Assembly: GCA_964369795.1 (NCBI GenBank) | Contig: CAYJGX010000006.1 | Span: 1,499 to 53,884, forward strand | DNA: 52,386 bases | Direction: 5' to 3' | From: an uncultured Spirochaetaceae bacterium | GTDB lineage: Bacteria; Spirochaetota; Spirochaetia; JAFGXN01 | In this document: one piece after another, positions 14,649 through 52,386 of the stretch | Position numbering within the stretch: the first letter of the stretch is position 1 | How the letters are laid out: each line of letters opens with the position of its first letter | Program-made: the position numbers and the translations under genes | Notes under the pieces: generated by a model | What the model was told of the DNA's origin: nothing | The model's input: only the letters and a program-made list of their open reading frames with translations | The model's database searches: none

Positions 14649-14655
14649 TTTAATA

Positions 14656-15798: not shown

Positions 15799-15851
15799 TG
15801 TAAACCTCGGTAGAATTATAATCTAACAATTTTGCTAAGGCAAGCGGAATA

Positions 15852-32129: not shown

Positions 32130-32138
32130 ATTATGCGC

Positions 32139-32816
32139 CTACTTTGCAACAGGGTATTCGTTACATAATAGTCGATAAGGTTCTTCGTCTTCAATTATTT
32201 GGGGAAACCGACCCACATTTTCGTGAAAACGATTATCTGTGTTATCATCGTTGCACATAGAAACTTCACCAATTAGGACATCGCCAGTTCCTTCTTTTAC
32301 ATCAAAATCATGATATTGATGAGGCCACAGCGTGATACTTTCGCCTGGAGTCAGTTCAATTCCAGTGCCTGCTTTTACATAGAAAGAGCGACCGTCCATA
32401 TTTACTAAAACATCACTGTCGCAAAGTTCCCCATTGTTGTCATTGTAAATGTGAATAATGAGGGTGCCACCGCCACGGTTGATAATATCTTCGCTTTTCT
32501 TCCAGTGGAAATGCATAGGAGAGTGCTGTCCTTCTTTTAACATCAGTAATTTTTCTGCATATGTTTTTTTATATTTTGGATTGCCTAAATTGCCATTTCG
32601 GATAGTAATTAATGCAAATCCTACCTTGTCAAAATCGCCTTTGCCGTAATCCGTGATGTCCCATCCTAACATGTTATCTCGAATTTCATCGTATTCTGCA
32701 TTTTTGCTTTGCCAATCTTCGGGGGTAAAATGGCAAAATGGAGGGAGAGCAAATTTATATTCATTTATTAAATTTTCCATCTCTTTAATAGCTTTATTGA
32801 TTTCTGATCTTTTCAT
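32139..32816 (-). CDS. D-lyxose/D-mannose family sugar isomerase (cupin)
   Basis: The product is ~225 aa with a HFHWKKSEDIINRGGG cupin core typical of D-lyxose ketol-isomerases. Confidence 0.75.
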   Translation of the reverse strand: MKRSEINKAIKEMENLINEYKFALPPFCHFTPEDWQSKNAEYDEIRDNMLGWDITDYGKGDFDKVGFALITIRNGNLGNPKYKKTYAEKLLMLKEGQHSPMHFHWKKSEDIINRGGGTLIIHIYNDNNGELCDSDVLVNMDGRSFYVKAGTGIELTPGESITLWPHQYHDFDVKEGTGDVLIGEVSMCNDDNTDNRFHENVGRFPQIIEDEEPYRLLCNEYPVAK

Positions 32817-32836
32817 AAAAATACCTCTATATTTTA

Positions 32837-34396: not shown

Positions 34397-34503
34397 AAAG
34401 AACTCCTTTTTTAAAAAATATTTTATTTTAACAGGCATTTGTTATATTTTAGTTTATAATAGAATATAGAATTTGTCTAATTAATTTTTTAAAGGAGGAT
34501 ATT

Positions 34504-34728
34504 ATGGCAGAATTCACATTTAAAGTTGAAAAGTCTATTGGGTTTTTGGCAGAAAGAGATAAAAAAGGATTTGCAAAAGAGTTAACTTTCATTAGCTGGA
34601 ATGGGGCAGCACCCAAGTATGATATTCGTGGTTGGGATGAAAATCATGAAAAAATGACAAAAGGAATTACTTTAACAGCAGAAGAGTTAGTGAAATTACG
34701 AGATGTTTTGAACTCCATCGAAGTTTAA
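34504..34728 (+). CDS. PC4/YdbC-like small ssDNA-binding protein
   Basis: The 74-aa product has ISWNGAAPKYDIRGW...KGITLTAEEL, a pattern typical of the YdbC family. Confidence 0.6.
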   Translation: MAEFTFKVEKSIGFLAERDKKGFAKELTFISWNGAAPKYDIRGWDENHEKMTKGITLTAEELVKLRDVLNSIEV

Positions 34729-35681
34729 GAATTCGTAGAAGTAGTCAATTGGGAGTCTAACCATAGAAAGAGATCTTCAAAAAAAAGCTGATTATCTTTT
34801 TCGTTCATTGGCTCATGGCGGGCTCCCGGATATAATGCAACTTTTAAGTTTTTAATTTCGAGTTTTTTGTATTGTTTATATAATTTGACTACCGATTTCC
34901 CGAAATTGCATAGAGCATCGTCTTTGCCAGCGACTAGGAAAATCGGGAGCTCTTTGGGTATTTTCGATCTGTTTGACCGAGAATTATTGCGAGGAAAACT
35001 AGAAACTAAATCTCTGTAAAATGAAATAGAGCCTTCCCATCCACAATAAGGGTCCAAAAGAAACTGTTTTATTCTGTCGGGGTTAGAGCAAATCCAGGCG
35101 TAAACGCTGTCTGTCTCTTTAAAACGCCTCGAGAAATAGCGACAGACTAATTTTTCGATTTTTGGGATAGGGTATCTTGGTCCCGTTTTTTTAATGTAAT
35201 GTTCTAGAAGGCTAACAAGCAGTTTTGGTCCTATAGATGGAAGATAGGTACAACCACAAAGAATAACTCCATTTATGGGGAGAGGGTAGGCGGAGATGCA
35301 TGATTGAGCTATAAATGAGGCCATTGAATGAGCAAGGAGAAAGATGGGGTGATTTGGGTTTTCCCTTGTGATGAAGTTTATTACTTCTGCCATATCTCGT
35401 GTTAAAATTTCCCAGCCATCTTGTTCGGCAATAAACCCACACGCTTCTGGGGCGCCCGCAGTAGCCCCTTCTCCTCTGTGGTCATAGCAGTAGACGGCAA
35501 ATTGTTCCTTCGCCATTCGTAGGGCGTGGGGGAAGTGTGTTCCTTGATGGTCTTGCATGCCATGCACCCAGATTAAGACTGCCTTTGGGTTAGATGGGAT
35601 AAATTTTGTGGCAGCAAGAGGGGTTTTATCAAAAGAGGGGATAAAAAAAGATGTTCTTGAGATGGCTTGCGCTGTTTTCAT
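34725..35681 (-). CDS. Alpha/beta hydrolase, lysophospholipase/monoglyceride-lipase-like
   Basis: The nucleophile elbow is LLAHSMASF, the acid residue lies in VAGKDDAL and the His in PGARHEPMNE. It is the last gene of the minus-strand lipid operon. Confidence 0.7.
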   Translation of the reverse strand: MKTAQAISRTSFFIPSFDKTPLAATKFIPSNPKAVLIWVHGMQDHQGTHFPHALRMAKEQFAVYCYDHRGEGATAGAPEACGFIAEQDGWEILTRDMAEVINFITRENPNHPIFLLAHSMASFIAQSCISAYPLPINGVILCGCTYLPSIGPKLLVSLLEHYIKKTGPRYPIPKIEKLVCRYFSRRFKETDSVYAWICSNPDRIKQFLLDPYCGWEGSISFYRDLVSSFPRNNSRSNRSKIPKELPIFLVAGKDDALCNFGKSVVKLYKQYKKLEIKNLKVALYPGARHEPMNEKDNQLFFEDLFLWLDSQLTTSTNS

Positions 35682-35690
35682 AAATCATAC

Positions 35691-36458
35691 TTAATGTTTT
35701 GTCTTATTTTTGGTAAAACTTCTTCCTATTGGCATTTTTTCCCAAAGCGTAACAGGAAGAAGTTTCCATATTTTAACTAGGCAATGATAGCGCCAGTCAA
35801 TAATAACTTCTCTTTGTTTTTTGTCTATTGCACGAACGATTGCCTTCGCAACTTTTTCAGGAGTCATTTGGAGTGGGTAGTTAGGAAATTCTAGAAAATC
35901 TGTTGAAGTAAAACCAGGTAAAATGCTTGTGAATTTTATTGGATGTTTGTTGACTGTAGAAAGTTGAGAAAGTGAAGAAATATAATAGTCTTGAAAGGCT
36001 TTCGTTGCCGAATAGGCGGCTGAAATTCCGATTCCTTTTGTTCCCGCGATGGAGGTAATAGCTGCAATGTGCCCACCTTGTGGAAGTTGTTTGAAGTAAT
36101 TAAAAATATAAATAATAATACGTAAAAATCCTTCGACATTAGTTTTAGCTACAGCCAGTTCTTCACTCAGTTCTAGGACTGGGTTTACCTTTCCAATTCC
36201 AGAAGCTAAGAAAAAAGTATCTATCCCCCCCATTTCATTTATTAATAGCTGAAGTTTGTCCGTTGCGTCTTCTTGTGTAATGTCGATGGGTTGGTAAAAA
36301 ACTCTATCGGGGGCGAGAGCTTGTAACTCCTCGAGCAACTCGGTTCGCCTCCCTGCGATGCCGACTGTGAGGCCGCGATTGATATACGTTTGTGCAACTC
36401 TTCTGCCTAACCCAGATGTTGCTCCGACAATTAGAATTCTAGAGGGTTTCTTTTGCAT
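35691..36458 (-). CDS. SDR family oxidoreductase
   Basis: The cofactor motif is GATSGLGRR and the YxxxK motif is YSATKAF. Its start overlaps the end of the upstream exporter gene by 20 nt. Confidence 0.85.
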   Translation of the reverse strand: MQKKPSRILIVGATSGLGRRVAQTYINRGLTVGIAGRRTELLEELQALAPDRVFYQPIDITQEDATDKLQLLINEMGGIDTFFLASGIGKVNPVLELSEELAVAKTNVEGFLRIIIYIFNYFKQLPQGGHIAAITSIAGTKGIGISAAYSATKAFQDYYISSLSQLSTVNKHPIKFTSILPGFTSTDFLEFPNYPLQMTPEKVAKAIVRAIDKKQREVIIDWRYHCLVKIWKLLPVTLWEKMPIGRSFTKNKTKH

Positions 36459-38904
36459 TTTTCTTCCTCTTGTTGATGATGTAGTGTTTAATGTTGTGAT
36501 GGAGTGTGAGAGTCATTGGTAGAAAAAATAGGGATCCTAATGTTGCAGAAAATAGGGCTAATGCGATGAGAAAGCCAAAAAAAGTAATAGGCTTGAATGA
36601 GCTAAAAAGCATTGCACTCATTCCAAAGATAATGGCCATACTTGTTAGTAGGATAGGGCGACCTGTTTTTTCTAAGGTTTGGCGAATTGCACAATGAAGC
36701 GCTTCTGCTGGAGGCAATTCCTTTGAAGCTTTACTATAAACATTTTTATAGGTTAATAGGAAATGGATTGCATCATCTACACCAACTCCTATAATGACGC
36801 TTGTTACCATGAGAGTGGTCATATCGAGAGGAATTCTAAAAATTGCCATAATCGTAAAGTTTAAAGTAATTCCTATAATTGTAGGGATTAGAGCATGAAG
36901 ACCATACGAAATTGATTGCATAGAAATAGCAACGGTAATGAAGATTGCGAAGATAGCAAACAATGTAGATAAAGTTAAATCCTTATTCATTTGTCCTCGT
37001 AAATCAAGGATTCCGATTCTGTAGCCATCAAAGTTAAAATTGACATATGGAGGAAGCGCATCTTTTATAATTTTTTTCCAAGTAGGTAAAATTTTGTAAA
37101 AATCTTCTTCTGTTATGCAACCGTGATATATATCAAAATCAGCAATTCTAAAAACGGTAGAAATACGGGTTGCATCTGGGGAGATTAGCTCAAACTGAGC
37201 CATATTTTGCGATTTAAGAAAGCTAAAGATATGGCTCATTTTAATTCTTTGAGCTAATTCTTTTGGTATTTCATAGCTTCCTTCTGAGATTTGATTGGCA
37301 TAACATAGTAAAGTAGGAAAAGAGGTCAAGTAAGGAATAAATTTGTCATTTTTCAATTCTTGTTCTTTGTTTGCAATGAGTGTGAGTAAGTCGTAATTGT
37401 GATAAAAAGAAGACATCTTCTTGAAATCTTTTTCTAGATCCAAATTATTTTCTTTAATATAGGTAGCTAGCTTTTTTTTGTCAATTTCATAATCTATATA
37501 AATTTGATAAACTCCAGAAAATCTCTTGCTAATATCTGCAGTATCACTAACGACTTTGCTATTGCGGGGGAAATATGTAATATAGTCTGAATCATAGACC
37601 ATAAAATGTTGTGAGATAATAGGAGAGAAAACTGTTAGCAAAAAAAAGAGGAGTATAAGATATCTAAATTTAATAAGTTGGCGGGATATGTAATTAAAAG
37701 CCCTAGAGGAAGTTCCTTCCTGCTGTATGGTTCTTTTTTTGGGTAGCGGAAGAGGTAGATACGATAATATACAAGGGATAACGATTAGTGAAATGAGTGC
37801 ACTGTATATAATCCCAACGGAAGTAACAACTGCAAAATCATGGGTCTGAGTAATTTTAGAAACAAACAAACTTGATAATGATAATACGGTTGTAAATGTA
37901 GCAAATGTTATGGTTTTACCAATTTTCGCGGTAGAGAAAAAAACAGGCGAAAGATTTGCAGGGACTTGTGTATAGTCTTGCCGATAATATTGGTTTAATA
38001 AATGAATTGAATAGGAACTCGATAGGGCAAGAACTAACGGAGGACAGACAATTGAAATAACGGATAGTCTTATACCTAGCCATGAAACAGTTCCTAACAT
38101 CCAGATTGAGCTAACAGTTGCTGTTAGAATGGGGAGTATGACTGCACGTAAGGATTGAAAGCTAAAATAAAAAATAATGAGTATTAATAATAGCCCAAAA
38201 CCCATCAACAAAGAGAGGTCGCTTAATAGAAATTCCGCGACAATTTCTTCGAAATATGAAAGGCCTGCTAAATTATATGAAAAAGTATCTGTGTGATTGT
38301 CTAAAATTTCCCGAACTAAACGAGGAATGTTCATCGATAAAGGGTAGCTATGGTGGTCAATCATAAATGCAATTCGGTCTCCACTTTCGCTTACGACGAG
38401 CCTTCGAGCAATCGGATTATTTGTCAAGTCTTCTTTAAATTGATCCGCGGTTTGTTGGTCTGCAAAAAAATAGGGAATTTCGGCATTGTTTGATCGTTTG
38501 AGAATAGGGAGAGTGGCATAGGTAGGCGGTTTTCCCTCGACATGAATAGGTTTAATTTTTAGTTGTTCAAATGGCGATATAGCTATCTGAAAATTTTCGA
38601 TTTTGCTAATTTCTTTAATGGCAAATTGTATCTCGTTTAATACGGTAGGGCTAAATAAGGGTGCTCCACCTTCATTTTGTTTTATTGAAACCACTAAGAA
38701 ATCGGTATCTTCACGATTAGATACAATTGAATTTGTTGCGACTTTCGAAGGAATTAATGATGCTATATTAGGGTCAAAAATAATTCGGGGGTGAATAAGA
38801 ACCGAAAAAGCAAAAAAGAGGGTGAGTAAAAATGTTGCTATGATAATGGGCAGGCGAAATTTCGGAATATTTTGATATATTGTATTGGGATTAAGTTTTC
38901 GCAT
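36439..38904 (-). CDS. RND/MMPL-type (COG1033-like) membrane exporter, paralogue 1
   Basis: The ~820-aa product has two blocks of 6 TM segments, each preceded by a large extracytoplasmic domain. It carries GVGVDDAIHFLLTY in the C-terminal half. ATG 38904 lies 8 nt after the acyltransferase stop and is preceded by AGGAAG. Confidence 0.8.
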   Translation of the reverse strand: MRKLNPNTIYQNIPKFRLPIIIATFLLTLFFAFSVLIHPRIIFDPNIASLIPSKVATNSIVSNREDTDFLVVSIKQNEGGAPLFSPTVLNEIQFAIKEISKIENFQIAISPFEQLKIKPIHVEGKPPTYATLPILKRSNNAEIPYFFADQQTADQFKEDLTNNPIARRLVVSESGDRIAFMIDHHSYPLSMNIPRLVREILDNHTDTFSYNLAGLSYFEEIVAEFLLSDLSLLMGFGLLLILIIFYFSFQSLRAVILPILTATVSSIWMLGTVSWLGIRLSVISIVCPPLVLALSSSYSIHLLNQYYRQDYTQVPANLSPVFFSTAKIGKTITFATFTTVLSLSSLFVSKITQTHDFAVVTSVGIIYSALISLIVIPCILSYLPLPLPKKRTIQQEGTSSRAFNYISRQLIKFRYLILLFFLLTVFSPIISQHFMVYDSDYITYFPRNSKVVSDTADISKRFSGVYQIYIDYEIDKKKLATYIKENNLDLEKDFKKMSSFYHNYDLLTLIANKEQELKNDKFIPYLTSFPTLLCYANQISEGSYEIPKELAQRIKMSHIFSFLKSQNMAQFELISPDATRISTVFRIADFDIYHGCITEEDFYKILPTWKKIIKDALPPYVNFNFDGYRIGILDLRGQMNKDLTLSTLFAIFAIFITVAISMQSISYGLHALIPTIIGITLNFTIMAIFRIPLDMTTLMVTSVIIGVGVDDAIHFLLTYKNVYSKASKELPPAEALHCAIRQTLEKTGRPILLTSMAIIFGMSAMLFSSFKPITFFGFLIALALFSATLGSLFFLPMTLTLHHNIKHYIINKRKKNAKETL

Positions 38905-38911
38905 GATCTTC

Positions 38912-40171
38912 CTATTCGGCTTTAATTTTATGATAGAGGTATTCGATTGCAATTTTTACTTTAGTCGCCTGATTTGGGTTTTCTTTGAAATATAAATAAT
39001 AAGCCGTATCGCCAACTGCTAAATCTAAAGTCATTTCCATTCGGGATACAAAACATCCATCTAGGTGAATTGAATACATCTTTTCGGGTTCACGCGTGAT
39101 AAGAACATTTTCGCCTTCTTGTACAAAGGAAAGTGAAATTCCATTTTCGTCGTGTTTAAAGTTGCCCTCGCCTAGTTTTACAAAGCCGTTTGGATTTACG
39201 AGCCAATCAACCTTTACCGTTTCATCGATAGAATATTTGCCTGATTCGATTTCTGCTTTAACCTCTTCTTTTTGCCATTTGTACCAATCTGGAATATATG
39301 GAAATTCGGTGTCCCCACTTTCTGCATTTAGAATATTTAGAGAGTCTAAATGCCATTTTTTTCCACACGCTTCACAAAATAAATCATTTCCAAGCGAATT
39401 CATTTTAAATTCTGTCTTGCAGGCCGGACATTGATAGAGAATTCTGTGAAGACCCTCCGCGTTTTTAGCATAGTTGATATGCAGGTTGTTTTCTCGTTGA
39501 TAGGCATAGTCATCATGTTCAAGGTGTTGAGTTATTTTAGCATGAATTTCTTCTGTTGAAGCGGCTTGGAGTTCTTCGGGGGTGTAAAGTCCCGTTAGTG
39601 TTCCGCGGACTTTAGCTTTTCTTTCATGGTAGACGTTGTAAAATGGTTTCTTAATATAGTTCCCTTCCATTTTGTAGGTTACTACCGGATAGTTTAGGAG
39701 CTTGAGAATTTTAGCAAAACTTTCTGGGAAACCTTGAAACGTGCCATCGACACAATAGTGGCCTTCTGGAAAAAGAACTAAAATTTGCTTAACCTCATTT
39801 AGGACATGTTTGTAGTTTTTTAATGAGTACATGTTGTCGTTAATAAAACGCCGCTTTGGAAAGCCTCCAATGAGTCGAAGAGATTTCTCCGTTTGAAAGA
39901 AAGCTTCGTATCCTGCACACCAATTGTGTCCTTTAGGAAATACCGCAGAGATAATCATGAAGTAGTCGATAAAGTTAATGTGGTTAGGAAGTAGGACATA
40001 TGGGCCTTTTATTTTCTTCATGTCCACTTTAGTGATAAGTGGCTTCGATCTAAGTAATTGAAGTTTAGAAAGTGTTATTGAAACAAATTTAAAAGGTAAA
40101 AAATTCTTTGTTGGTTTTATAGACCAGTCAAATCTTTTTTTAGGGATTTTGTTGTAGAAATATTTTTTCAT
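38912..40171 (-). CDS. PlsC/LPLAT-family acyltransferase with a C-terminal zinc-ribbon plus beta-rich extension (AT1)
   Basis: The HX4D box is NHINFID, and FPEGH and GGFPKRR are present. The zinc ribbon is CPAC...CEAC (39365-39430), followed by IPDWYKWQ. ATG 40171 follows AAGGAGAGG. Confidence 0.8.
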   Translation of the reverse strand: MKKYFYNKIPKKRFDWSIKPTKNFLPFKFVSITLSKLQLLRSKPLITKVDMKKIKGPYVLLPNHINFIDYFMIISAVFPKGHNWCAGYEAFFQTEKSLRLIGGFPKRRFINDNMYSLKNYKHVLNEVKQILVLFPEGHYCVDGTFQGFPESFAKILKLLNYPVVTYKMEGNYIKKPFYNVYHERKAKVRGTLTGLYTPEELQAASTEEIHAKITQHLEHDDYAYQRENNLHINYAKNAEGLHRILYQCPACKTEFKMNSLGNDLFCEACGKKWHLDSLNILNAESGDTEFPYIPDWYKWQKEEVKAEIESGKYSIDETVKVDWLVNPNGFVKLGEGNFKHDENGISLSFVQEGENVLITREPEKMYSIHLDGCFVSRMEMTLDLAVGDTAYYLYFKENPNQATKVKIAIEYLYHKIKAE

Positions 40172-40292
40172 ATTGTGGCCTCTCCTTAAGTCCATTTATT
40201 AAGAATATAACAAAAAAATTTATAATCTTTAAAACTTATACTATATTTATAAGATTAAGTAAAGTCATGATAAAAAGGTGCCTATCCTCTGT

Positions 40293-41573
40293 TTATAAGG
40301 AGATGCAATTGTATCCCGCAATTGTCTTTGCGTAGAGTAATTCTGTCGCTATACGAATTTTAATGACTTCTCCTACTTTTCTGGGGAAATAACAAAAAAA
40401 GGACCTGTTATGCTCGGTGATATCGACTAATTCGGAGGATTTAAGGTTGTAGACAAGTTCGACGTGTACCGAATAATTTTCATGTGGAAGCTTCTTGATG
40501 TGAACCGCCTCTCCTCTATAGTTGCAAGTAAATTCGAATCCGTTTGAGTCATGAGAGAGAAAACCTTTACCTGCCTCCACGGTTCCTTTTCCAGAAAAAA
40601 AGCATTCAACTTGAACATCGCCACTAATTTTATAGGTTCCTGCATCGATTTCTTTTTGCACTTCTGTAATTTGCCATTTATACCAATCGGGAATATGAGT
40701 AAAAATATCTTTTGAGTTTGATGCCTTTAGTTCGCCAGTAGGCTGCTGAATCCATTGATTATTGCAAATTTTACAAGATAAAGTATTTCCTTCACTTGCC
40801 ATATTGAATTCGCTCTTGCAGCTTGGGCATTTATAAAGAAGTTTTTCGAGCCCTACCGCATTTTTTTTGTATTTGTTGATAATATTGTTTTCTTTTTGAT
40901 AGCGATAGTCGTCGTTAGTGATTTCGGCTAAGATGGCAGCATGAATTTCTTCGTTCGAAGTCGCTTGAAGTTCTTGAGCCGTGAAAAGTCCCTTTAAGGT
41001 GGCTTGTAATGGTAGCTTTCGTGAGATTCGGGGAGAATAGAAAGGCGTGTCAATAAAATTGCCTTGCATCTTTAAAGTGACGATAGGAGCATTGATAATT
41101 TTTAGAATTTTAGGGAGACTTGTTGGGATTTGTCCAGTATAGCCTGCGATAGAATAGTGCCCCTCTGGGAAGAAAACGACAGTTTGCTTTAATTCAGTTA
41201 AACAATATTTCATATTACGAATCATGGAGACGTTGTCGTGAAGGTAACGGCGTTTAGGAAAGCCTCCAATGCGGCGTAGTCCCCAATCTAACTTCATGAA
41301 AGATTCGGCACTAGCAACCCAATTGTATTTTTTAGGGTAAAGAGCTTTGACAACTATAAGAAAGTCAGTAAAACTATAATGGTTACATAAAAGAATGAAA
41401 GGGCCTTTTATTTTGTCCATATCGATTTTTTTGATTTTATGTTTTCTTCCCAAGAGAATAAAGAAAGCACCTGTGTAAGCGACAAAGTTCCAAAAGTGGT
41501 TTTGTCGCCTTGGATTTCTTTTGTAGTCAAAGGGTCGTGGCTCTTTTTTTCCATGGTATGATAAATCCTTCAT
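40293..41573 (-). CDS. PlsC/LPLAT-family acyltransferase with a C-terminal zinc-ribbon plus beta-rich extension (AT2)
   Basis: The HX4D box is NHYSFTD, and FFPEGH and GGFPKRR are present. The zinc ribbon is CPSC...CKIC (40764-40829), followed by IPDWYKWQ. It is a tandem paralogue of AT1. Confidence 0.8.
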   Translation of the reverse strand: MKDLSYHGKKEPRPFDYKRNPRRQNHFWNFVAYTGAFFILLGRKHKIKKIDMDKIKGPFILLCNHYSFTDFLIVVKALYPKKYNWVASAESFMKLDWGLRRIGGFPKRRYLHDNVSMIRNMKYCLTELKQTVVFFPEGHYSIAGYTGQIPTSLPKILKIINAPIVTLKMQGNFIDTPFYSPRISRKLPLQATLKGLFTAQELQATSNEEIHAAILAEITNDDYRYQKENNIINKYKKNAVGLEKLLYKCPSCKSEFNMASEGNTLSCKICNNQWIQQPTGELKASNSKDIFTHIPDWYKWQITEVQKEIDAGTYKISGDVQVECFFSGKGTVEAGKGFLSHDSNGFEFTCNYRGEAVHIKKLPHENYSVHVELVYNLKSSELVDITEHNRSFFCYFPRKVGEVIKIRIATELLYAKTIAGYNCISL

Positions 41574-41712
41574 ATTAGAATCCTCTACTTTCCATTATGA
41601 ATTTAACAACTAAATATGTCAAGTAAAAAGCCTGCATTATTAAAATTTGATTAAATAAAACAAGATTATATTGAAAAAAAAGGCAAAAATAGATACCCTA
41701 TGAGTGAAAATC

Positions 41713-42528
41713 ATGAAACATTCATTATTAATCTTTTTGGGAATGTTAGTCTATCTCTTTGTGTGTGGGAATCTTTATGCAAGTTTACCTTTTCCAGAGC
41801 AATCCCCCATATATAAATTCATCGATCTTGTTTTTTTACAAGACAATGAAGAGAAAGATGTTTTGGATCTTTATCGGAAGGTTAAGCGGGAATTAGAAGA
41901 ACCCATAGAAAGAGCTTACCTAGAATATTATTTGGCTCGCTATTATCAAGCTATACGCGATTTAGAGACAATGAAAAATTACGATACGGCAATGATCAAT
42001 GGAAAGGTCTTTGGTATATATAAAAACTTTGTTCGCCGTGACGCTGCAATAAAAATTTATGACAGGGTTTACGAGACAACGGAGAAAGAATTGAAGGGTG
42101 TAAAAAATCCAGCAAAATCTCCTTGGTATTTATTACAGACGCGAATCATTGCAGAGTTATGTCTTCTTAAAGGCAATATGTATATGATGGGTAATGGTCT
42201 TGAGGTTCCAAAGCGAGCAAAAAATTTATTAAAAGCCAATCCAAACTGTCTACGATCACAACTAATACTAGTTAATCAATGTGTCTTTGCGGGAGAGGCA
42301 TGGGGTGGCGATGGAAACGAGGCCATCCGTCTTTTGCAAAAAATGGATATAACAGCCTGTAGAGACAAAGAATTACTTCTTGATTACTACAACAACTTCG
42401 CTTATGCCTACGGCCGAGTAGATAATTATGAACAAGCGAATAAATATATACAAAAAGCACTAAAAGTCTATCCTTCTAACTTGCAAGCTAACTTTATATG
42501 GAGTAAAATACAATCAAAAGGTTTTTAG
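41713..42528 (+). CDS. Secreted helical (TPR-like) protein, paralogue 1
   Basis: An N-terminal signal peptide is present. It shares blocks with 46180..46968 (YYLARYYQA vs YYMARAYQS, AELCLLKG vs SQLCLLKS, ALKVYPSN vs ALAFYPTN). The track start is GTG 41704. Confidence 0.65.
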   Translation: MKHSLLIFLGMLVYLFVCGNLYASLPFPEQSPIYKFIDLVFLQDNEEKDVLDLYRKVKRELEEPIERAYLEYYLARYYQAIRDLETMKNYDTAMINGKVFGIYKNFVRRDAAIKIYDRVYETTEKELKGVKNPAKSPWYLLQTRIIAELCLLKGNMYMMGNGLEVPKRAKNLLKANPNCLRSQLILVNQCVFAGEAWGGDGNEAIRLLQKMDITACRDKELLLDYYNNFAYAYGRVDNYEQANKYIQKALKVYPSNLQANFIWSKIQSKGF

Positions 42529-42540
42529 CAAGGGGAAAAA

Positions 42541-46081: not shown

Positions 46082-46144
46082 CAAAAACCCCTTCTAACAT
46101 CTTAATACAATCTTAATAATATGTAAAGTTTAATAAAAAAAGAA

Positions 46145-46174
46145 TTGCACATTTAAAGCGTTTGTGCGTATAAT
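46145..46174 (+). promoter_or_regulatory. Candidate promoter (TTGCAC - 18 nt - TATAAT) placed 6 nt before ATG 46180
   Basis: TTGCAC is at 46145-46150 and TATAAT at 46169-46174. No Shine-Dalgarno sequence lies between the -10 box and the ATG. Confidence 0.4.
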
Positions 46175-46179
46175 TGAAT

Positions 46180-46968
46180 ATGATTAATAAAAAACCTTTA
46201 GTGATTTTTATCCTGCTTTTTCTTTTTTTCCCATTGCTCGTTATAGCAGAATCGGTAGTGGATGTTGCCGCATTTGCAGATGCTGTTTATCTTCAAGAAA
46301 AGAACGATAGCGAACTTCGTGCGGAGTATGATCTTCTCTTACCTACTCTAACAGATCCCTATCAAATAGCACTTGCCCACTATTATATGGCCCGTGCCTA
46401 TCAGTCTTTTGATACAGTCGAAATTTGTATCGAACATAATCGAGATATGCGAGAGGGAAAATTTGTATCCTTGTTTAGTTTTTACAATGAGAGAAAGAAT
46501 GCAATTAAATTTTATGAACGTGCTCTTAAAATCGTAGAGCAACAAGATGAAACGGCGAATTGGCTTGCACTTAAAGCAGATTCTATTAGCCAGCTTTGTT
46601 TACTTAAAAGTGTTGGATACACCATGTTTAATGGACTCAAAGTCGAGAAATTTTCCAAGGAAACGCTTAAACTTGACCCTAAAAATGCGACAGCACAATT
46701 TTTAATAGCATCAGCAAAAATATATCCACCAAAAGTCTATTTTGGAAATCCTCCAAAGGCGCTGGAACTTTTAAATGCCATTCAATTACCAGAGTCTCCA
46801 ACAAAGCCAGTATTATTTGACTTCGCTCTTGGGTATGCTTATACATATGCACGGCTAGGACAAAAAAACGAGGCCCTCCTTAAAATAAAGGAAGCCCTCG
46901 CTTTTTATCCGACAAATTGCTTTGCCAATGCCGTTTCTATCATGATTGAGAACGACGAAATAAAGTAA
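46180..46968 (+). CDS. Secreted helical (TPR-like) protein, paralogue 2
   Basis: The signal peptide is MINKKPLVIFILLFLFFPLLVIA. It is a paralogue of 41713..42528. The track start is TTG 46174. Confidence 0.65.
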   Translation: MINKKPLVIFILLFLFFPLLVIAESVVDVAAFADAVYLQEKNDSELRAEYDLLLPTLTDPYQIALAHYYMARAYQSFDTVEICIEHNRDMREGKFVSLFSFYNERKNAIKFYERALKIVEQQDETANWLALKADSISQLCLLKSVGYTMFNGLKVEKFSKETLKLDPKNATAQFLIASAKIYPPKVYFGNPPKALELLNAIQLPESPTKPVLFDFALGYAYTYARLGQKNEALLKIKEALAFYPTNCFANAVSIMIENDEIK

Positions 46969-46970
46969 TT

Positions 46971-49409
46971 TTACTCGGTTGCCAGACTGCGTTTTAAGGC
47001 TCGCTTGCGCTCGCGTTTCTCTTTTGCACGATACCGAATCGAAATCATTGCAGGCAAGAAAACTAAACATGCAATGGTTGCAAAGAAGAGAGAGCCTGCA
47101 ATGAGCGTTCCAAAGTAGGCAACCGGAGTGAATTGAGCATAAACCATCATGCCTAACCCTAGAATAATTGAGACACTTGTGATAATAATCGGCCTCCCCG
47201 CTTCTTCCATCGTTTCTTCTAAAGCTTCGCGCAGCCGATCCTCGGATTTCGCCTTTTCATAACAATTTCTAAAAGTGAGCAAAAAGTGAATGGCGTCGTC
47301 GACACCAATTCCAATGGCGACACTTGAGACCATGACTGTTGTCATATCCATCGGGATGCCTGTGATTACCATGACCACTTGATTTAAACAAACTCCAACG
47401 AGCATAGGAATGAGCGAATATAGACCACAGTAGGCAGAACGAAGCGCAACGGTTATGGTTAAGAAAATTAAAATAGAAGAAAGAAGAGTGGAATTAAATA
47501 AGTCGGTGTTCATTTGAGTTCGCAAGTCGATAAAGTCAACCCGATAGCCATCAACAACAAAATCGACATAAGAAGGCAAGATTTGCGAAAGCTCATGATT
47601 TAGAGAGTCAAGCATGTCTCCAAGTGTTTCTTCCGCTAAATAGCCATGCGCATTGGTTAAATCGCTGACACGAATGGTTGTTGTAATTTTGTTGGCTTGA
47701 GGATTGATAAATTCAAAAGCCATTGCGTTGGAGCTTCGCATTGTTTTAAAGATAGAATCTAGTCGTAATCGCTGGATAAGATCCGATGGAATTTCTCTCG
47801 TGCCTTCCATAACATAATTGGTTTCGGCAAGCATTTTGGGAAATGAAATTAGGTATCGAATGTATTGAGATTGTTCAATGGTTTGCTCGAATTTATGGAT
47901 TTGGCGTAAAAGTTCTTCGTTGTGATAAAAGGTTCTGAGGTTTTGAGTTGCGGTGTTGTTCTCTTTTCCCCATTCTTTTAGTTTTTGATTGTTGATGCTA
48001 AAGTCGATATACAGCTGAGTGATTCCTGTAAAATTTTTGCTGATGCGAGCCGCTTCTATGACGGCAGGGTTATCTTCTGGGAAGTATGCAACATAGTCAG
48101 ATTCATAGGATAAAAAATGGGTGGTTACGAGGGGGGCAGCAAGAATCAGAATAAGGAATGCAAGGATAATATAACGCCCTCTAATGAGCCCTGGAACTCC
48201 TTTTTTGAGAATGGTAGCAATGAAGTTAGTCGTCCGTCGGCCTTTTGTTTTGACTTTAGGGGCCTTTAGGCAGGCAAGGAGGGCTGGCAAGAAGGTGAGT
48301 GAAAAAAGAGCTCCAAATGCAAGGCCAATAGAAGTAGAAATGGCAAAAAGCCGTGTTTGAGGAATTTTCGTTACAAGGAGGCCAAGTAATGCAATAATAG
48401 TGGTAGCATTGGCCATAAGGATTGTAGGTGCAACCTTGTAAATGGCGACAAAAATTTGCTCTGCACGATTTTCTTCTGTTTTACGGACTAGAAGATGTTG
48501 ATGGTATTGATTGAATGTGTGAATACAATAAGAGCTAGTAAGGGCCAAAATGAGTGGTGGCGCAACAATACTGACAACCGATATTTCGATTCCTATGAGA
48601 GCCATAGCGCCTAACATACATATGATACTCATCAAAATAACTGAAAGAGTGACAAATACGGCTCGGAAGTATTTAAAGCTAATAAAGAAAAGGACTAGAG
48701 AGAGTAGTATTCCTAGCCCTAATAGAAGACCAAGATCGGTAACTAAAAAAGTACCAATGTATTTTTCGAATTGAGGTGTTCCTGCGATAGAAAAGCCAAA
48801 GAGTTTGTTATGAGTCGATAAGATAGATGAAAGTCGATCTGGAAGAGTTTTTAAAGATTTTTCTTTTGAGTAGTCTAGAAGAAGGGCAAGCATTGTTCCC
48901 TCTTCGTTGATGATAAGTCGTCGTGAGATGAAGTTATTTAGAAGATCTTCCTTGAAACGGAGCGCCATCTCGTCATCCTCTATGGCAAAAGGTAGATTGT
49001 CATGGCTGTTAGGATCGAATTTGAGTAGACCTTCGGGTTCAAATGTGACCGTTTTTCCATTGACTATAACAGGGCTGATTTTAACTTGTTGAAAGGGGGA
49101 AAAGGCAACTTCTAGTGCCGTTGTATCGGTTATTTCATAAATAACCATTTCAATTGTTTCTAGAACCTCTTTGGAAAAAAGCGGAACCCCTTCTATTTCT
49201 TCGAATGCGACAACTAGGTATTCGAAGTTATCTCGTTCTTTTGTTAGTTTGTCCTCTTTTGCCGAGGGGGGGATTAAAGAGCGTAAATCGGTATTGATTT
49301 TAATTTGAGGATAAAATGCTAGGAAAAAAGCAAATATACTGGTGAGAAATAGAGCCCCAATGATGATACTGATTTTGTATTTGGCTAATTTTTTATAAAA
49401 TTCGAACAT
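46971..49409 (-). CDS. RND/MMPL-type (COG1033-like) membrane exporter, paralogue 3
   Basis: The 812-aa product carries GIGVDDAIHFLLTF. ATG 49409 follows GGAGCAAAA and lies 17 nt after the stop of the upstream acyltransferase. Confidence 0.85.
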   Translation of the reverse strand: MFEFYKKLAKYKISIIIGALFLTSIFAFFLAFYPQIKINTDLRSLIPPSAKEDKLTKERDNFEYLVVAFEEIEGVPLFSKEVLETIEMVIYEITDTTALEVAFSPFQQVKISPVIVNGKTVTFEPEGLLKFDPNSHDNLPFAIEDDEMALRFKEDLLNNFISRRLIINEEGTMLALLLDYSKEKSLKTLPDRLSSILSTHNKLFGFSIAGTPQFEKYIGTFLVTDLGLLLGLGILLSLVLFFISFKYFRAVFVTLSVILMSIICMLGAMALIGIEISVVSIVAPPLILALTSSYCIHTFNQYHQHLLVRKTEENRAEQIFVAIYKVAPTILMANATTIIALLGLLVTKIPQTRLFAISTSIGLAFGALFSLTFLPALLACLKAPKVKTKGRRTTNFIATILKKGVPGLIRGRYIILAFLILILAAPLVTTHFLSYESDYVAYFPEDNPAVIEAARISKNFTGITQLYIDFSINNQKLKEWGKENNTATQNLRTFYHNEELLRQIHKFEQTIEQSQYIRYLISFPKMLAETNYVMEGTREIPSDLIQRLRLDSIFKTMRSSNAMAFEFINPQANKITTTIRVSDLTNAHGYLAEETLGDMLDSLNHELSQILPSYVDFVVDGYRVDFIDLRTQMNTDLFNSTLLSSILIFLTITVALRSAYCGLYSLIPMLVGVCLNQVVMVITGIPMDMTTVMVSSVAIGIGVDDAIHFLLTFRNCYEKAKSEDRLREALEETMEEAGRPIIITSVSIILGLGMMVYAQFTPVAYFGTLIAGSLFFATIACLVFLPAMISIRYRAKEKRERKRALKRSLATE

Positions 49410-49426
49410 TTTTGCTCCTGTGGGGG

Positions 49427-50620
49427 TTAGAATTGCATGTCTGTCTTTTGAGCGGCCCATATGTAGTTCATGTATTTTAAGGCACTAAGACGAGTATTGT
49501 TTTTAATTCTATAGGTGATTGCAGGGGATAAAGTGGTTATTTGAAAAGCATTTCTACCCTCGAAAGCCATTCCTCGGATTCTGTCAAATGGGATTTCTAT
49601 TTTGTCTAAAAAGTTGTCGTTGACAGGTTCAAGTTCGAGTCTGTTTTTGTATAATTGGCATTTGAAGTCTCCTAATAACTCGTTACGGTAGGAGGTGGTC
49701 TTTCGCAATATTTTCCATGTTCCGTCCTCTAGAAGAACGTCGTTCTCTCCATAGGAGTCGAAGTCAATCGCTTTTACCTGCTCTTTTTGCCATTCATCCC
49801 ATTGATCGGTTTGAGTAAAATGGTTTCCTTCTAAATAGCCGTATTCTGTGTAGGTCCATGTTTCACCACATTGTACGCATTTAATTGAATTATTTTTAGA
49901 GCGCAAAGTAGAGACGTTTTTACATGATGGGCACATATAGAAACAATGTTCAAAACCTTCTGCTAAGAGTTTTCCTTTGTATGGGGTCGGGTTTGCATTT
50001 TGGATTTTATATGAATCTACTGTGAGATTTTCTTCGATTGAAGTTATGAGCTCTTCATTGCTCATCTGTGCGAGTTCTTCTACCGTATAGATTTTTTTGA
50101 TTTTGACATCGATTCTACCGCGGCGTTTTTTGTGAACAGCCCAACGCGGGTTTGCGAAATAGGCTCCTTCGATATTATAGATAACAATAGGAACATTTAA
50201 TCGTTTAGCAAGTTTGCTAATGGTTGGGCTGATGTAGGAATTTTTGCCCGCACAGCTTTTATTTCCTTCGGGAAAAATACAGACATTCCCTTTTCCACTG
50301 ATTGCATCATTGATTCCGCGCAAGGCAGAAGTATCTAATTTAGAGCTTTTTGTAATAGGAATGGGTTCTAAAAGGTATTTTACAATTTTTCCTGCAACAG
50401 GCAAGCTTGAAACATGATCGCTCATTACAAAATAAAAGGGTATTCCTAAACATCGAGCCATAAGGAATGGATCAAAATCTGAGGCATGGTTTGCAAGTAC
50501 CACATAGGGTCGCTTTAGTTTACATTTTTCGTATGAAACAATAAATTTACTTGTAATAATCCGAGCAACGAATAATCCTAAACCCCTAATCCAAAATGAG
50601 TGTCTAGCTCTTACTTTCAT
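49427..50620 (-). CDS. PlsC/LPLAT-family acyltransferase with a C-terminal zinc-ribbon extension (AT3)
   Basis: The HX4D box is NHASDFD and FPEGN is present. The zinc ribbon is CPSC...CVQC (49868-49933), followed by QWDEWQ. ATG 50620 follows GGAGG. Confidence 0.8.
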   Translation of the reverse strand: MKVRARHSFWIRGLGLFVARIITSKFIVSYEKCKLKRPYVVLANHASDFDPFLMARCLGIPFYFVMSDHVSSLPVAGKIVKYLLEPIPITKSSKLDTSALRGINDAISGKGNVCIFPEGNKSCAGKNSYISPTISKLAKRLNVPIVIYNIEGAYFANPRWAVHKKRRGRIDVKIKKIYTVEELAQMSNEELITSIEENLTVDSYKIQNANPTPYKGKLLAEGFEHCFYMCPSCKNVSTLRSKNNSIKCVQCGETWTYTEYGYLEGNHFTQTDQWDEWQKEQVKAIDFDSYGENDVLLEDGTWKILRKTTSYRNELLGDFKCQLYKNRLELEPVNDNFLDKIEIPFDRIRGMAFEGRNAFQITTLSPAITYRIKNNTRLSALKYMNYIWAAQKTDMQF

Positions 50621-50755
50621 AGTAACCTCCAATTATACAATTCTACTTCACTTTTAATGTTTTGTCATATGTTTAAACTAAAGATTAATGATTTTTTTTA
50701 ATAAAAAAAATGCTTACTTTTGCACTTCCTTCTTCTATAGTGATGTTTATAGAGG

Positions 50756-50785
50756 TTGCTAAAGGGTGAGAAATCGTGATAAAAT
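50756..50785 (+). promoter_or_regulatory. Candidate extended -10 promoter (TTGCTA - 18 nt - TGaTAAAAT) 7 nt before ATG 50792
   Basis: TTGCTA is at 50756-50761, TG at 50777-50778 and TAAAAT at 50780-50785. This is a pattern match only. Confidence 0.4.
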
Positions 50786-50791
50786 AGAGAT

Positions 50792-51943
50792 ATGGAAAAT
50801 GTTTTGTTGGGGTATTCGATATTTATTCTAGTTGCTGGGTCCTATTTAGCCTTTGTAACTATAGTAAATATTATTTATTTGATTATTTATTCTCATCAAG
50901 GAAAGAAAGAGTTTACTCTTAAAGAGGGAGAAAAGGCCCCGAAAATCTCTGTTCTAATTCCTGCACGAAACGAGGAAACTCGTATTCGCCCAACGCTTAA
51001 CGCCCTATTAAATCAAAATTATCCAAATTATGAAATTTGCGTTCTAAACGATTCTTCTACCGATTCCACAGGCGATATTTTAGCCGAATACCAAGCGAAG
51101 TCTAGTAAAATAAAAATTTTCAATGGCAAACCTTTAGCCGAAGGATGGAAAGGAAAGCCCCATGCACTTCAGCAGCTTATCGACCAGACAGATGGTGATT
51201 ATGTTATTTGTCTCGATGCAGACTTAACGGTAAGTGAAGATTTTATCAGTTGGTCTATCTTGCGAATGTTAAAAACAGGGGTAGACAGTATGTCGGCTTG
51301 GCCACGACATAACTATCAACAAAAACGAGAATATATCGTTTGTCCTGCCATTTATACTCTTACTTCTTTCTTAATGCCTCTTTGGCTCATTCATACGACA
51401 AAGAATAAATTTTTTGCCTTTGCTATCCAATTTGCCATTTATAAACGAGAGGCGTTGGAAAAAATTGGGGGCTATGCCGCTGCAAAAAATGTAATGAATG
51501 AAGATCTTGGAATGGCGCGAGAAATGAAAGCTGCAGGCTACAAAACTATTTTCTTAGATGCTAAGCGAAAAATTCGTGGCGACATGTATGAAAATTTTTC
51601 GTCGGCAGTTACTGGAATCGAACGCAGTATTGCTTCCGTGTTTGAAAATAAATTATATCCAATTCTTATTTTGTCTATATTCTTGTTTATTGCACTTATT
51701 TTACCGCCTTTTTTTGTCTTAGCAGTGACTCTTTTGCAAGCATCTGGATGGTACTTAGGGATTATCGGCATAAGTCTTTTTTGCGGCTCTTGGATTTTTG
51801 CAATGATTAATAGACGGTTAAACCCTTTGTCGTGGTTTATTTTCCCCGTTACTTATTCTGCAATTATTTTTTTAGCGTGGCGTTCATATTTTAGATCTCG
51901 GACAGGCAAAGGTTTTATCTGGAAGGGGCGAAAGGTTGTCTAA
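50792..51943 (+). CDS. Membrane-anchored family 2 glycosyltransferase (lipid-glycosyltransferase-like topology)
   Basis: The product has an N-terminal TM segment, the GT2 motifs ISVLIPARNEE, LNDSSTD, CLDADL and NEDLGMA, and C-terminal TM segments. Confidence 0.8.
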   Translation: MENVLLGYSIFILVAGSYLAFVTIVNIIYLIIYSHQGKKEFTLKEGEKAPKISVLIPARNEETRIRPTLNALLNQNYPNYEICVLNDSSTDSTGDILAEYQAKSSKIKIFNGKPLAEGWKGKPHALQQLIDQTDGDYVICLDADLTVSEDFISWSILRMLKTGVDSMSAWPRHNYQQKREYIVCPAIYTLTSFLMPLWLIHTTKNKFFAFAIQFAIYKREALEKIGGYAAAKNVMNEDLGMAREMKAAGYKTIFLDAKRKIRGDMYENFSSAVTGIERSIASVFENKLYPILILSIFLFIALILPPFFVLAVTLLQASGWYLGIIGISLFCGSWIFAMINRRLNPLSWFIFPVTYSAIIFLAWRSYFRSRTGKGFIWKGRKVV

Positions 51944-52386
51944 ACCGCAAGCAATTATATCTTTTAATCCAATTTTTCGCTTTTTTGCGCGGTTCACATT
52001 TTTGCTAATCGCTATTCTTGTCACATTTGCATTCCCTATCATGTACAAAATTAAAATTAGGGGTCGGAAAAATTTACACTTGGTAAAAAAAGGAGCCGTA
52101 TCGATTAGTAATCATTGTACCTACTTAGATCCTGGACTTATTGGACTAGCACTTTATAGAAAACGAATACATTTTTCTGGGACAGAAAAGGCTTTTAGGG
52201 TGAAAGGGCTCAATCTTTTTGTGCGTTTGCTTGGAGGTTTTCCTATTCCAGCCGAAAACCCAGGAGCGATTACCCCTTATGTTCGCAAGGCTTTGAAAAA
52301 GGGGGATTGGGTGCATTTTTATGCAGAGGGCGATTTGTATGACTATAATCAAGAGGTCCTTCCTCTTATGGATGGTGCTTTCTTTT
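51936..52386 (+). CDS. PlsC/LPLAT-family acyltransferase (AT4), 3'-truncated by the window end
   Basis: This is my own translation of the frame open from 51876 to the window end. It has an N-terminal TM segment, the HX4D box SNHCTYLD, GGFPIP and FYAEGD. The candidate TTG start at 51936 overlaps the GT2 stop by 8 nt. The ORF is absent from the track because it has no stop codon in the window. Confidence 0.7.
   Translation, partial: MSKPQAIISFNPIFRFFARFTFLLIAILVTFAFPIMYKIKIRGRKNLHLVKKGAVSISNHCTYLDPGLIGLALYRKRIHFSGTEKAFRVKGLNLFVRLLGGFPIPAENPGAITPYVRKALKKGDWVHFYAEGDLYDYNQEVLPLMDGAFF

Follow-up and report, generated by a model that had tools for sequence, protein, structure and literature searches.

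Acyltransferase, MMPL/RND transporter and TPR protein genes at one spirochaetal locus: a candidate system for envelope (glyco)lipid assembly and export

The window analyzed here is a 52,386-nt stretch of DNA from an uncultured Spirochaetaceae bacterium (assembly GCA_964369795.1, contig CAYJGX010000006.1, positions 1,499 to 53,884 of the forward strand). From 34725 to the window end at 52386 it carries 13 intact open reading frames (ORFs), which encode four PlsC-type acyltransferases (AT1-AT4), three MMPL/RND transporters (MMPL1-MMPL3), two secreted TPR paralogues (TPR1 and TPR2), a membrane glycosyltransferase of family GT2, a homologue of the N-acetylhexosamine 1-kinase NahK, a short-chain dehydrogenase/reductase (SDR) and an alpha/beta hydrolase (Table 1). 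A first-pass annotation, made from the letters and translations only, had read these genes as a system for lipid assembly and export. The ORFs lie where it had placed them, in the same order and on the same strands, and profile searches bore out each of its gene-family calls. This includes the four HX4D boxes, each followed by an EG motif, and the three exporters of about 815 aa, for which a hydropathy scan fits 12 transmembrane (TM) segments. It was also right about what is missing: no acyl carrier protein (ACP), ketosynthase (KS), dehydratase (DH), Lpx, Wzx, ABC-transporter or squalene/hopene domain was found in the 13 genes or in the 34 kb upstream. Two parts of the cluster are conserved elsewhere in the Spirochaetota, namely a TPR-GT2-AT operon and the adjacency of MMPL and acyltransferase genes, and the locus as a whole may serve the assembly and export of envelope (glyco)lipids.

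Table 1. Genes of the lipid cluster and other features of the window
Feature	Position	Strand	Evidence and context
Alpha/beta hydrolase (Hydrolase_4, monoglyceride-lipase/lysophospholipase-like)	34725..35681	-	PF12146 139.6 bits; last gene of the AT-AT-MMPL1-SDR-hydrolase operon
SDR, specificity unassigned	35691..36458	-	PF00106 93 bits; NCBIfam SDR matches sub-threshold only
MMPL1, RND/MMPL transporter, older paralogue	36439..38952	-	PF03176 107.6 bits; 837 aa
AT1, long PlsC-type acyltransferase, box NHINFID, zinc ribbon and C-terminal domain	38912..40195	-	PF01553 33 bits; directly upstream of MMPL1
AT2, long PlsC-type acyltransferase, box NHYSFTD	40293..41573	-	PF01553 37 bits; first gene of the operon
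TPR1, secreted TPR protein, divergent paralogue of TPR2	41704..42528	+	Signal peptide; family HMM E 5e-69
NahK (N-acetylhexosamine 1-kinase) homologue	42541..43668	+	Starts 12 nt after TPR1; PDB matches
MMPL2, recent duplicate of MMPL3	43640..46084	-	PF03176 76.5 bits; 814 aa
TPR2, secreted TPR protein	46174..46968	+	Orthologue of the first gene in the conserved TPR-GT2-AT operon
MMPL3	46971..49460	-	PF03176 83.2 bits; 829 aa; inverted cassette with AT3 between TPR2 and GT2
AT3, PlsC-fold acyltransferase, box NHASDFD, zinc ribbon and PH-like C-terminal domain	49427..50632	-	PF01553 52 bits; directly upstream of MMPL3
Membrane GT2, HpnB/CruG-like, non-processive lipid-acceptor type	50792..51943	+	PF00535 99 bits; second gene of the conserved operon
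AT4, small membrane-anchored PlsC-type acyltransferase, box NHCTYLD	51936..52386 (window end)	+	PF01553 48 bits; third gene of the conserved operon
1271-aa protein, eight Listeria-Bacteroides (Flg_new) repeats	2730-6545		
564-aa protein, divergent InlB B-repeat	12954-14648		
208-aa bacterial ankyrin-repeat protein	25108-25734		Adjoins lspA
Signal peptidase II (lspA)	25736-26380		
Sugar-catabolism trio	31167-34438		PfkB kinase, D-lyxose isomerase, alpha-galactosidase; directly upstream of the lipid cluster

The genes show an operon-like spacing. On the minus strand the order of transcription is AT2, AT1, MMPL1, SDR and hydrolase, and in the pairs AT1/MMPL1, MMPL1/SDR and AT3/MMPL3 the genes either overlap or are separated by less than 20 nt, the SDR gene sharing 20 nt with the stop region of MMPL1. 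Translation of MMPL1 and MMPL3 probably begins at internal Met codons, with products of about 812-821 aa, and the probable start of AT4 is the TTG at 51936; the window end cuts this protein short by about 104 C-terminal residues. That a run of 13 genes should hold four of PF01553 and three of the MMPL family is far more than chance would give, with a probability in the order of 1e-8 by our own estimate rather than a computed test, if a handful of each family is assumed for a genome of about 2,500 genes. A scan for promoters and terminators was uninformative (59 promoter-like sites vs 52 expected, 16 terminator-like sites vs 14 expected), and neither Rfam families nor tRNAs were found in the window.

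Horizontal transfer of the cluster is unlikely, as its GC content and GC content at third codon positions match those of housekeeping genes and mobile-element genes are absent. Together with the occurrence of relatives in the Spirochaetota, this match indicates that the cluster is native to its Treponema-like spirochaete host. At 90% identity, each of the ten window proteins tested, ClpP and polyprenyl synthase included, stands as a singleton in a set of about 15 billion sequences, and the cluster genes share 46-73% identity with their closest homologues, which points to a poorly sampled lineage.

In relatives, the orthologues of TPR2, GT2 and AT4 form an operon. The order TPR, GT2 (about 380 aa) and AT (245-265 aa) was found at no fewer than eight distinct Treponema-type loci, with a gap of 0-60 nt between TPR and GT2 (L001, L035, L036, L037 from Treponema sp. 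HNW, L071, L072/L073, L074 from T. lecithinolyticum ATCC 700332, and L075, where L-numbers denote loci of relatives). At L035 the operon is intact and its products are 68% (TPR), 73% (GT2) and 73% (AT) identical to those of the window, whereas the TPR proteins of L036 and L072 are 50% identical to TPR2. By a strict operon definition (three co-directional genes, TPR-GT2 gap of at most 60 nt) the window does not count as a further case, though all three orthologues are present. Here, a 3.8-kb antisense cassette of AT3 and MMPL3 lies exactly between TPR2 and GT2, with the MMPL3 stop 2 nt from the TPR2 stop and no ORF disrupted. This exact position, together with the intact operon at L035, shows that an ancestral TPR-GT2-AT operon was split by the AT3-MMPL3 cassette. 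The first-pass annotation had drawn the borders differently and divided the genes into three modules, two of them being MMPL2 with a divergent TPR2 and AT3-MMPL3 with a divergent GT2-AT4. Neither of these is a conserved unit and the division has to be given up in favor of TPR2, GT2 and AT4, within which the GT2-AT4 pair it had joined is indeed conserved.

The surroundings of the operon differ between the window and its relatives. In L071, L072 and L073 the genes for Trypsin_2, an M20 peptidase, a 564-aa protein and a UPF0020 methyltransferase lie at most 8 kb upstream of the operon and are separated from it by ParE/ParC. The window orthologues of these four genes are found at 10064-17054, about 30 kb from TPR2, so that the intervening region must have been rearranged or inserted in this lineage. 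Behind the operon AT, relatives carry either a second TPR gene or unrelated genes such as FeoAB and CarD. The second TPR gene is of a divergent B-type (284-319 aa) and was seen in several relatives (L036:12607-13566, L071:12757-13629, L072:12757-13611); such a gene may also lie just beyond the window end, after AT4. TPR1 resembles the A-type, upstream TPR genes of the relatives more than it does the B-type. In two genomes the operon is divergent from a Glycos_transf_4 (MraY/WecA-type) gene (L001:1-581, L074:6851-7921).

Both TPR proteins carry type-I signal peptides and are predicted to be extracytoplasmic; they are 28% identical to each other (E 6e-32). Members of the family occur in Treponema (T. 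lecithinolyticum, Treponema sp. HNW) and in metagenome-assembled genomes (MAGs) labelled Spirochaetales. The AlphaFold2 (AF2) model of TPR2 is all-helical with a pLDDT of 92.6, and four of its eight top Foldseek matches, the TPR domain of PTPIP51, HusA, a TPAT T-component (8g52, E 5.7e-3) and BstC (7t1s, E 6.5e-3, TM-score 0.40-0.46), are small TPR-like proteins that bind hydrophobic ligands. At the sequence level neither BstC nor a T-component appeared among the best 60 of 115 profile matches (E<=10), and TRAP transporter genes were absent from the window and from the loci of relatives examined around members of the TPR family.

The second protein of the operon, GT2, has one N-terminal TM segment and further TM segments at its C-terminus. 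It aligns over its full length with the HpnB model (46-381 against 40-383 of 386) and scores 129 bits against a cut-off of 379, followed by CruG with 117 bits against 600 (E 1e-33); the T. lecithinolyticum orthologue reaches 169 bits on the HpnB model. By these cut-offs GT2 belongs to a related family and is not a member of either HpnB or CruG. A processive synthase of the PgaC/IcaA, BcsA or NodC kind was rejected too, since the PgaC/IcaA match (E 6e-27) stays at 95 bits against a cut-off of 422 and the processive Q(Q/R)xRW motif is absent in seven members of the family, where the position reads G-I/V-x-R/K-S/T/N (GIERS, GIGKN, GITRT). The cholesterol galactosyltransferase BB0572 of Borrelia, compared by its description only, is also a GT2 and has its catalytic domain at residues 11-182 and no N-terminal TM segment (PMC8168883). 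With an extracytoplasmic TPR protein and two membrane enzymes, GT2 and AT4, the products of the operon cover both membrane faces.

All three MMPL proteins lie well above the PF03176 gathering threshold of 20.5 bits. A crude Kyte-Doolittle scan gives the same topology for each, in which a loop of about 190 aa separates TM1 from TM2-6 and one of about 200 aa separates TM7 from TM8-12. In the second half, D721, D722 and H725 (GVDDAIHF segment), candidates for proton coupling, are membrane-embedded and invariant in six clade members, whereas the first half reads SSY instead of an acidic pair. Identity between MMPL2 and MMPL3 is 70% for the protein and 69% for the DNA, with the similarity restricted to the coding sequence (CDS); MMPL1 is 39% identical to both and branches in the tree outside MMPL2/3 and their nearest relatives. 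These relatives are only 46-49% identical, and relatives of the MMPLs were found nearly all in Spirochaetota MAGs. The best subfamily model was HAE3 (TIGR00921) with 151, 156 and 171 bits, all under the curated cut-off of 351.9, so that membership in HAE3 was rejected. Solved relatives include HpnN, matched in PDB and NCBIfam, and the distant MmpL4 (PDB, E 1.5e-4). However, HpnN itself is ruled out by 18-41 bits on NF052374 (cut-off at least 1100) and 56-68 bits on TIGR03480 (at least 751.85), and no shc/hpn hopanoid genes were found in the 52 kb of the window or beside the MMPL relatives. The exporters thus stand outside the characterized HpnN family. BstA was likewise rejected (21-30 bits on the equivalog, at least 1400 required), and no substrate-binding protein gene that could represent the PhnD-like partner BstB is found in the cluster.

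The acyltransferases are of two kinds. All four exceed the PF01553 threshold of 23 bits, and each HX4D box is followed by FPEG or YAEG, i.e., (F/Y)xEG. AT4 is a short type with an N-terminal TM segment according to its hydropathy, whereas AT1-AT3 have no TM segment and share an invariant four-Cys zinc ribbon (CxxC...CxxC). AT1 and AT2 are 42% identical to each other and each 28% identical to AT3. The AF2 model of AT3 (pLDDT 91.6) shows an N-terminal PlsC fold, the zinc ribbon and a C-terminal PH-like domain; Foldseek matched it to the PlsC of T. maritima (5kym) at TMt 0.63 and its C-terminal part to PH domains. None of the enzymes is a canonical PlsC, since AT2, AT3 and AT4 score 20-42 bits on TIGR00530, where at least 102.95 is required, and AT1 does not match at all. 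The family of AT1-AT3 is widespread and keeps a fixed architecture of about 400 aa with PlsC fold, four-Cys zinc ribbon and a PH-like domain for which there is no Pfam model. The C-terminal module alone retrieved 771 representative clusters (99 at E<=1e-10), and in nearly all of them it occupies residues 210-390, approximately, of a protein that has this architecture and a length of about 390-410 aa.

The second conserved unit is the adjacency of MMPL and acyltransferase genes. In the window two non-orthologous types of acyltransferase, 28% identical, are found upstream of one MMPL paralogue each. Around 24 distant MMPL loci of Spirochaetota, tblastn alone found no acyltransferases, which proved to be a sensitivity artefact: rescans with hidden Markov models (HMMs) and Pfam detected PF01553 genes 0-2 kb from the MMPL homologue at nine of the 24 loci, and nowhere else in the 432 kb of flanking sequence. 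The earlier comparison with the mycobacterial habit of placing an acyltransferase next to MmpL thereby gains support. One of the nine, L022, looked like a triad of MMPL, acyltransferase and TPR protein, but its TPR protein is a cyclic nucleotide monophosphate (cNMP)-binding protein of another family, and its acyltransferase passes the threshold of the canonical PlsC domain. A 270-aa protein beside the MMPL gene of L010 was also discarded as a member of the TPR family. Among 33 loci of the AT1/AT2 type from a metagenome scan, one (L039) carries a tandem pair of such genes.

Among the remaining genes, the kinase matches NahK structures (4ocu, 4wh1, 4ocj) at E 7e-72, with 246 bits over residues 7-372 on 30-376 of 4ocu, and keeps the catalytic loop HNDTKANN (HxDxxxxN) and the metal site IDLDT (DxD). 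In contrast to the bifidobacterial lacto-N-biose/galacto-N-biose (LNB/GNB) NahK, to which it is homologous over the full length, it follows a TPR gene in a lipid cluster, and the window contains none of the genes for lacto-N-biose phosphorylase, GalT and GalE. The identification of a NahK-like kinase thus stands. The further idea that it feeds an N-acetylhexosamine (HexNAc) donor into the pathway fared less well: no conserved linkage of NahK to any cluster gene was found, one kinase homologue lying 5 kb from an acyltransferase in L058. The kinase is probably a neighboring sugar-salvage gene that happens to follow TPR1, and supply of UDP-HexNAc to GT2 is at most possible.

The hydrolase has monoglyceride lipases among its PDB relatives (E 5e-11). 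At two MMPL loci, L005 (10001-16595) and L008 (116-6817), an opposite-strand trio of a HAD hydrolase, an 850-aa HEAT-repeat protein and a Hydrolase_4 protein follows the MMPL gene. These Hydrolase_4 proteins are 31% identical to the window hydrolase and lie 3 kb from the MMPL homologue, which hints at a link between MMPL and hydrolase that would be independent of the acyltransferases.

Taken at the level of gene content and order, the cluster is a lineage-specific fusion or interleaving of two lipid modules, with amplification to three MMPLs, four acyltransferases and two TPR proteins. As best reading, we tentatively propose that acylation and glycosylation of lipids take place at the inner membrane, and that the MMPLs extract these lipids with proton-motive force for transfer to periplasmic TPR carriers. 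In the first module, GT2 would glycosylate a membrane lipid acceptor on the cytoplasmic face, AT4 would then O-acylate the glycosylated lipid, and across the membrane, in the periplasm, the TPR protein would take charge of the product. In the second, the MMPL/RND transporter is paired with a PlsC-type acyltransferase, here the long peripheral type of AT1-AT3, which could make or remodel an acyl-lipid at the inner leaflet; the MMPL would extract or flip this lipid toward the periplasm and outer membrane by means of the proton-motive force, and the TPR paralogues, as soluble proteins, would accept or carry it. The SDR and the monoglyceride-lipase-like hydrolase, which are predicted to be co-transcribed after MMPL1, may trim or modify the lipid. 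The putative carrier role is suggested by the extracytoplasmic location of the TPR proteins in an operon with two membrane enzymes, by the Foldseek matches and by the partnership of BstC with BstA. The gene families, their paralogy and operon-like spacing, the conservation of both modules and the split of the first one are read directly from the sequences; the lipid substrates, the direction of transport, the carrier role and any common product are what we infer. The core of the first-pass proposal, in which lipids are acylated and glycosylated and then handed over to the exporters, thereby remains the best reading, while its premise of a single conserved locus does not hold.

The locus resembles the logic of known systems that combine an RND lipid transporter with acyltransferases, here in spirochaetes and with a TPR partner. 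MmpL3 is the transporter of trehalose monomycolate (TMM) in mycobacteria. As in mycobacterial MmpL loci, an MMPL gene of PF03176 is clustered with acyltransferase genes, but the sequences are very distant (see the MmpL4 match above), the acyltransferases are PlsC/LPLAT and not PapA/Chp, there is no polyketide synthase (PKS), FadD or MmpS, and in the spirochaete host the accessory protein is a secreted TPR. In the case of MmpL10/PapA3/Chp2, which act on diacyl- and polyacyltrehaloses (DAT/PAT), the synthesis of the acylated glycolipid is divided between the two sides of the membrane and linked to its export (PMC4183827). In the aryl-polyene module, ApeD (LPLAT), ApeJ (glycosyl/acyltransferase), ApeM (RND) and the LolA/LolB-like ApeL and ApeN have been proposed to act in lipid anchoring and outer-membrane delivery (PMC8253772). 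The triad of LPLAT, GT2-like protein and RND transporter and a candidate for a periplasmic carrier are found again in the window. However, KS, ACP, DH, ketoreductase (KR) and thioesterase are missing, the carrier candidate is a TPR protein and not LolA-like, and the genes are not one co-conserved cluster. Membership in the aryl-polyene/flexirubin clusters was rejected, as the window holds no dedicated KS, ACP, DH or KR and the only KR-like gene is a generic SDR.

A further parallel is offered by BstC and the RND protein BstA, which take part in sterol delivery to the outer membrane in the BstABC system of Methylococcus capsulatus (PMC10942540). Like BstABC and TatT (Tp0956) of T. pallidum, the window combines an RND/MMPL transporter with an all-helical TPR-like extracytoplasmic protein, the hydrophobic cavity being a feature described for those systems (PMC10942540). 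Unlike them, it has no BstB, TRAP or sterol genes, and the conserved partner of the TPR protein is GT2-AT and not the transporter. HpnN and HpnB share the RND topology and the full-length alignment of GT2, but the scores stay far below the cut-offs and no squalene-hopene cyclase or hpn genes occur in the window or beside the operon of the relatives. The absence of core genes and the low model scores thus agree with the earlier statement that the locus does not fit aryl-polyene/flexirubin or hopanoid clusters. In carotenoid glycoside esters, a GT2 (CruG/CruC/CrtQ) glycosylates a lipid alcohol and an acyltransferase (CruD/CrtO) esterifies the sugar. The window follows the same pairing of GT2 with an acyltransferase, but it has no carotenoid genes and the CruG score is low.

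A number of observations weigh against the proposed assembly and export function. In all that was sampled, only this contig has the 13-gene arrangement, and conservation of gene order in relatives, as the idea of a single locus had implied, was not found: homologues of MMPL, AT3 and AT1/AT2 are scattered, each alone, and not syntenic. No MMPL gene was ever seen within 10 kb of the TPR-GT2-AT operon in relatives, nor an acyltransferase beside the closest MMPL relatives (46-49%: L005, L008, L010). An AT3 orthologue (53%) stands among unrelated genes in L001 and a 44% homologue among housekeeping genes in L002, and the 33 loci of the AT1/AT2 type have no MMPL neighbor and no conserved neighborhood. 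As for the nine distant loci with both genes, eight belong to one MMPL clade and L022 to another, both distinct from that of the window; their acyltransferases are short and not orthologous to AT1-AT3, and in L022 the adjacency may be a coincidence. Many proteins of the AT1-AT3 type lie on clostridial-looking or otherwise monoderm contigs, for example an Oscillospiraceae match, so that their basic function needs neither an outer membrane nor an MMPL. With regard to a lipid role of the TPR proteins, the sequence profile confirms the TPR identity and finds generic TPR proteins only, and the structural similarities of TPR2 are weak (E 2e-3 to 1e-2, TM-score 0.40-0.51) and possibly a generic TPR likeness.

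In the light of this scatter the genes may not share a pathway at all, but may have been brought together by chance or under loose selection, through local duplication (MMPL2/3, AT1/2, TPR1/2) and rearrangement, with each gene keeping the function of its stand-alone orthologue. We regard this as unlikely, although some features speak for it. Besides the scattered orthologues of the nearest relatives, the duplication of MMPL2/MMPL3 is a simple CDS-sized one, the ancestral neighborhood of the operon (Trypsin_2, M20, 564-aa protein, then ParE/ParC) is now 30 kb away as in a rearrangement-prone region, and unrelated functions are mixed in, as can be seen from NahK and the sugar genes next to the cluster. 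On the other hand, each of two acyltransferase types shows translational coupling to an MMPL paralogue of its own, MMPL and AT genes are neighbors elsewhere in the phylum too, the AT3-MMPL3 cassette was inserted precisely inside a lipid-glycosylation operon without breaking an ORF, and PF01553 and MMPL genes are far denser than expected.

Rather improbable in our view is a role in lipid salvage, remodeling or detoxification, in which the MMPLs would flip or take up lysolipids derived from the host or from phospholipases, or efflux free fatty acids. The acyltransferases would then re-acylate at the cytoplasmic face in the manner of LplT-Aas, the hydrolase would act on lysolipids or monoglycerides and the TPR proteins would be periplasmic binding partners, in the way TatT serves uptake transporters. 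For all four acyltransferases the top NCBIfam matches are indeed Aas-type acyl-ACP-phospholipid O-acyltransferase models, though far below the cut-off; the lack of TM segments and the PH-like membrane-binding domain of AT1-AT3 would fit a peripheral cytoplasmic-face enzyme, and the hydrolase resembles monoglyceride lipases. Yet GT2 has no role in lysolipid repair, and the characterized RND proteins of the MMPL/HAE type (MmpL3, HpnN, BstA) move lipids outward. LplT-Aas itself is an established pair that couples the gene of a lipid transporter with an acyltransferase of the PlsC family acting on the cytoplasmic face (PMC11416262), but its transporter belongs to the MFS and not to the RND proteins, and the acyl-ACP synthetase domain of Aas is absent here, none having been found in a Pfam scan of the cluster genes. 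Treponemes depend on host lipids, and the TPR-like Tp0956 is suspected to take part in lipid trafficking (PMC10942540), which would also suit salvage.

It is very unlikely that the cluster is the tailoring and export part of a specialized-lipid cluster of the hopanoid, carotenoid-glycoside-ester or aryl-polyene/flexirubin-like kind with its core genes beyond the window end. In its favor are HpnB and CruG as the best models of GT2, the GT2-LPLAT-RND triad known from aryl-polyene clusters (PMC8253772) and the end of the window inside AT4, on a contig of 53,884 nt that is only about 1.5 kb longer. However, the HpnN and HpnB scores remain under their cut-offs, the window contains no KS, ACP, DH, squalene/phytoene synthase or cyclase, and no such core genes flank the TPR-GT2-AT operon at the loci of relatives examined. 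Least credible is a synthase-dependent exopolysaccharide system of the poly-N-acetylglucosamine (PNAG) or cellulose type, made up of a TPR scaffold, a processive GT2, an O-acyl modifier and NahK for UDP-HexNAc supply, since the PgaC/IcaA match of GT2, the TPR proteins that accompany synthases in pga, bcs and alg systems and the nearby NahK are outweighed by the low PgaC score, the missing processive motif, an acyltransferase of the lipid-acting PlsC type instead of the polysaccharide O-acyltransferase type, the lack of porin and deacetylase genes and the absence of NahK beside the operon in any relative.

Outside the cluster, the upstream 34 kb hold housekeeping and sugar genes. The two repeat proteins of 1271 and 564 aa are probably surface proteins. 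The alpha-galactosidase of the sugar-catabolism trio carries a signal peptide and an N-terminal He_PIG Ig-like domain, and this trio together with NahK suggests host-glycan foraging.

Treponema-type outer membranes lack classical lipopolysaccharide (LPS) and its Lpt route, and treponeme glycolipids are immunologically relevant. How treponemes supply this unusual, LPS-poor outer membrane is poorly understood. Neither a characterized Treponema TPR/GT2/AT operon nor a spirochaetal MMPL-acyltransferase system or an HAE3 lipid exporter was found in the literature searched. Envelope lipid assembly and export being the reading we prefer, it could be extended, speculatively and with rather low probability, to a dedicated Treponema-type pathway in which GT2 and PlsC-type acyltransferases build an acylated glycolipid, HAE3-like MMPLs extract it and TPR proteins chaperone it; the window would then reveal this pathway by uniting all its parts, and the spirochaete-specific TPR proteins would represent a new class of periplasmic lipid chaperones, analogous to LolA, BstC and TatT. 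The analysis yields a TPR-GT2-AT operon in cultivable oral treponemes (T. lecithinolyticum ATCC 700332, Treponema sp. HNW) and a recurrent pairing of MMPL and acyltransferase genes across the Spirochaetota. If the TPR proteins do not act in this way, the locus would be a rearranged set of ordinary lipid genes. If they bind the product of GT2 and AT and pass it to or from the MMPLs, they would define a new route of lipid trafficking and a possible target or antigen pathway.

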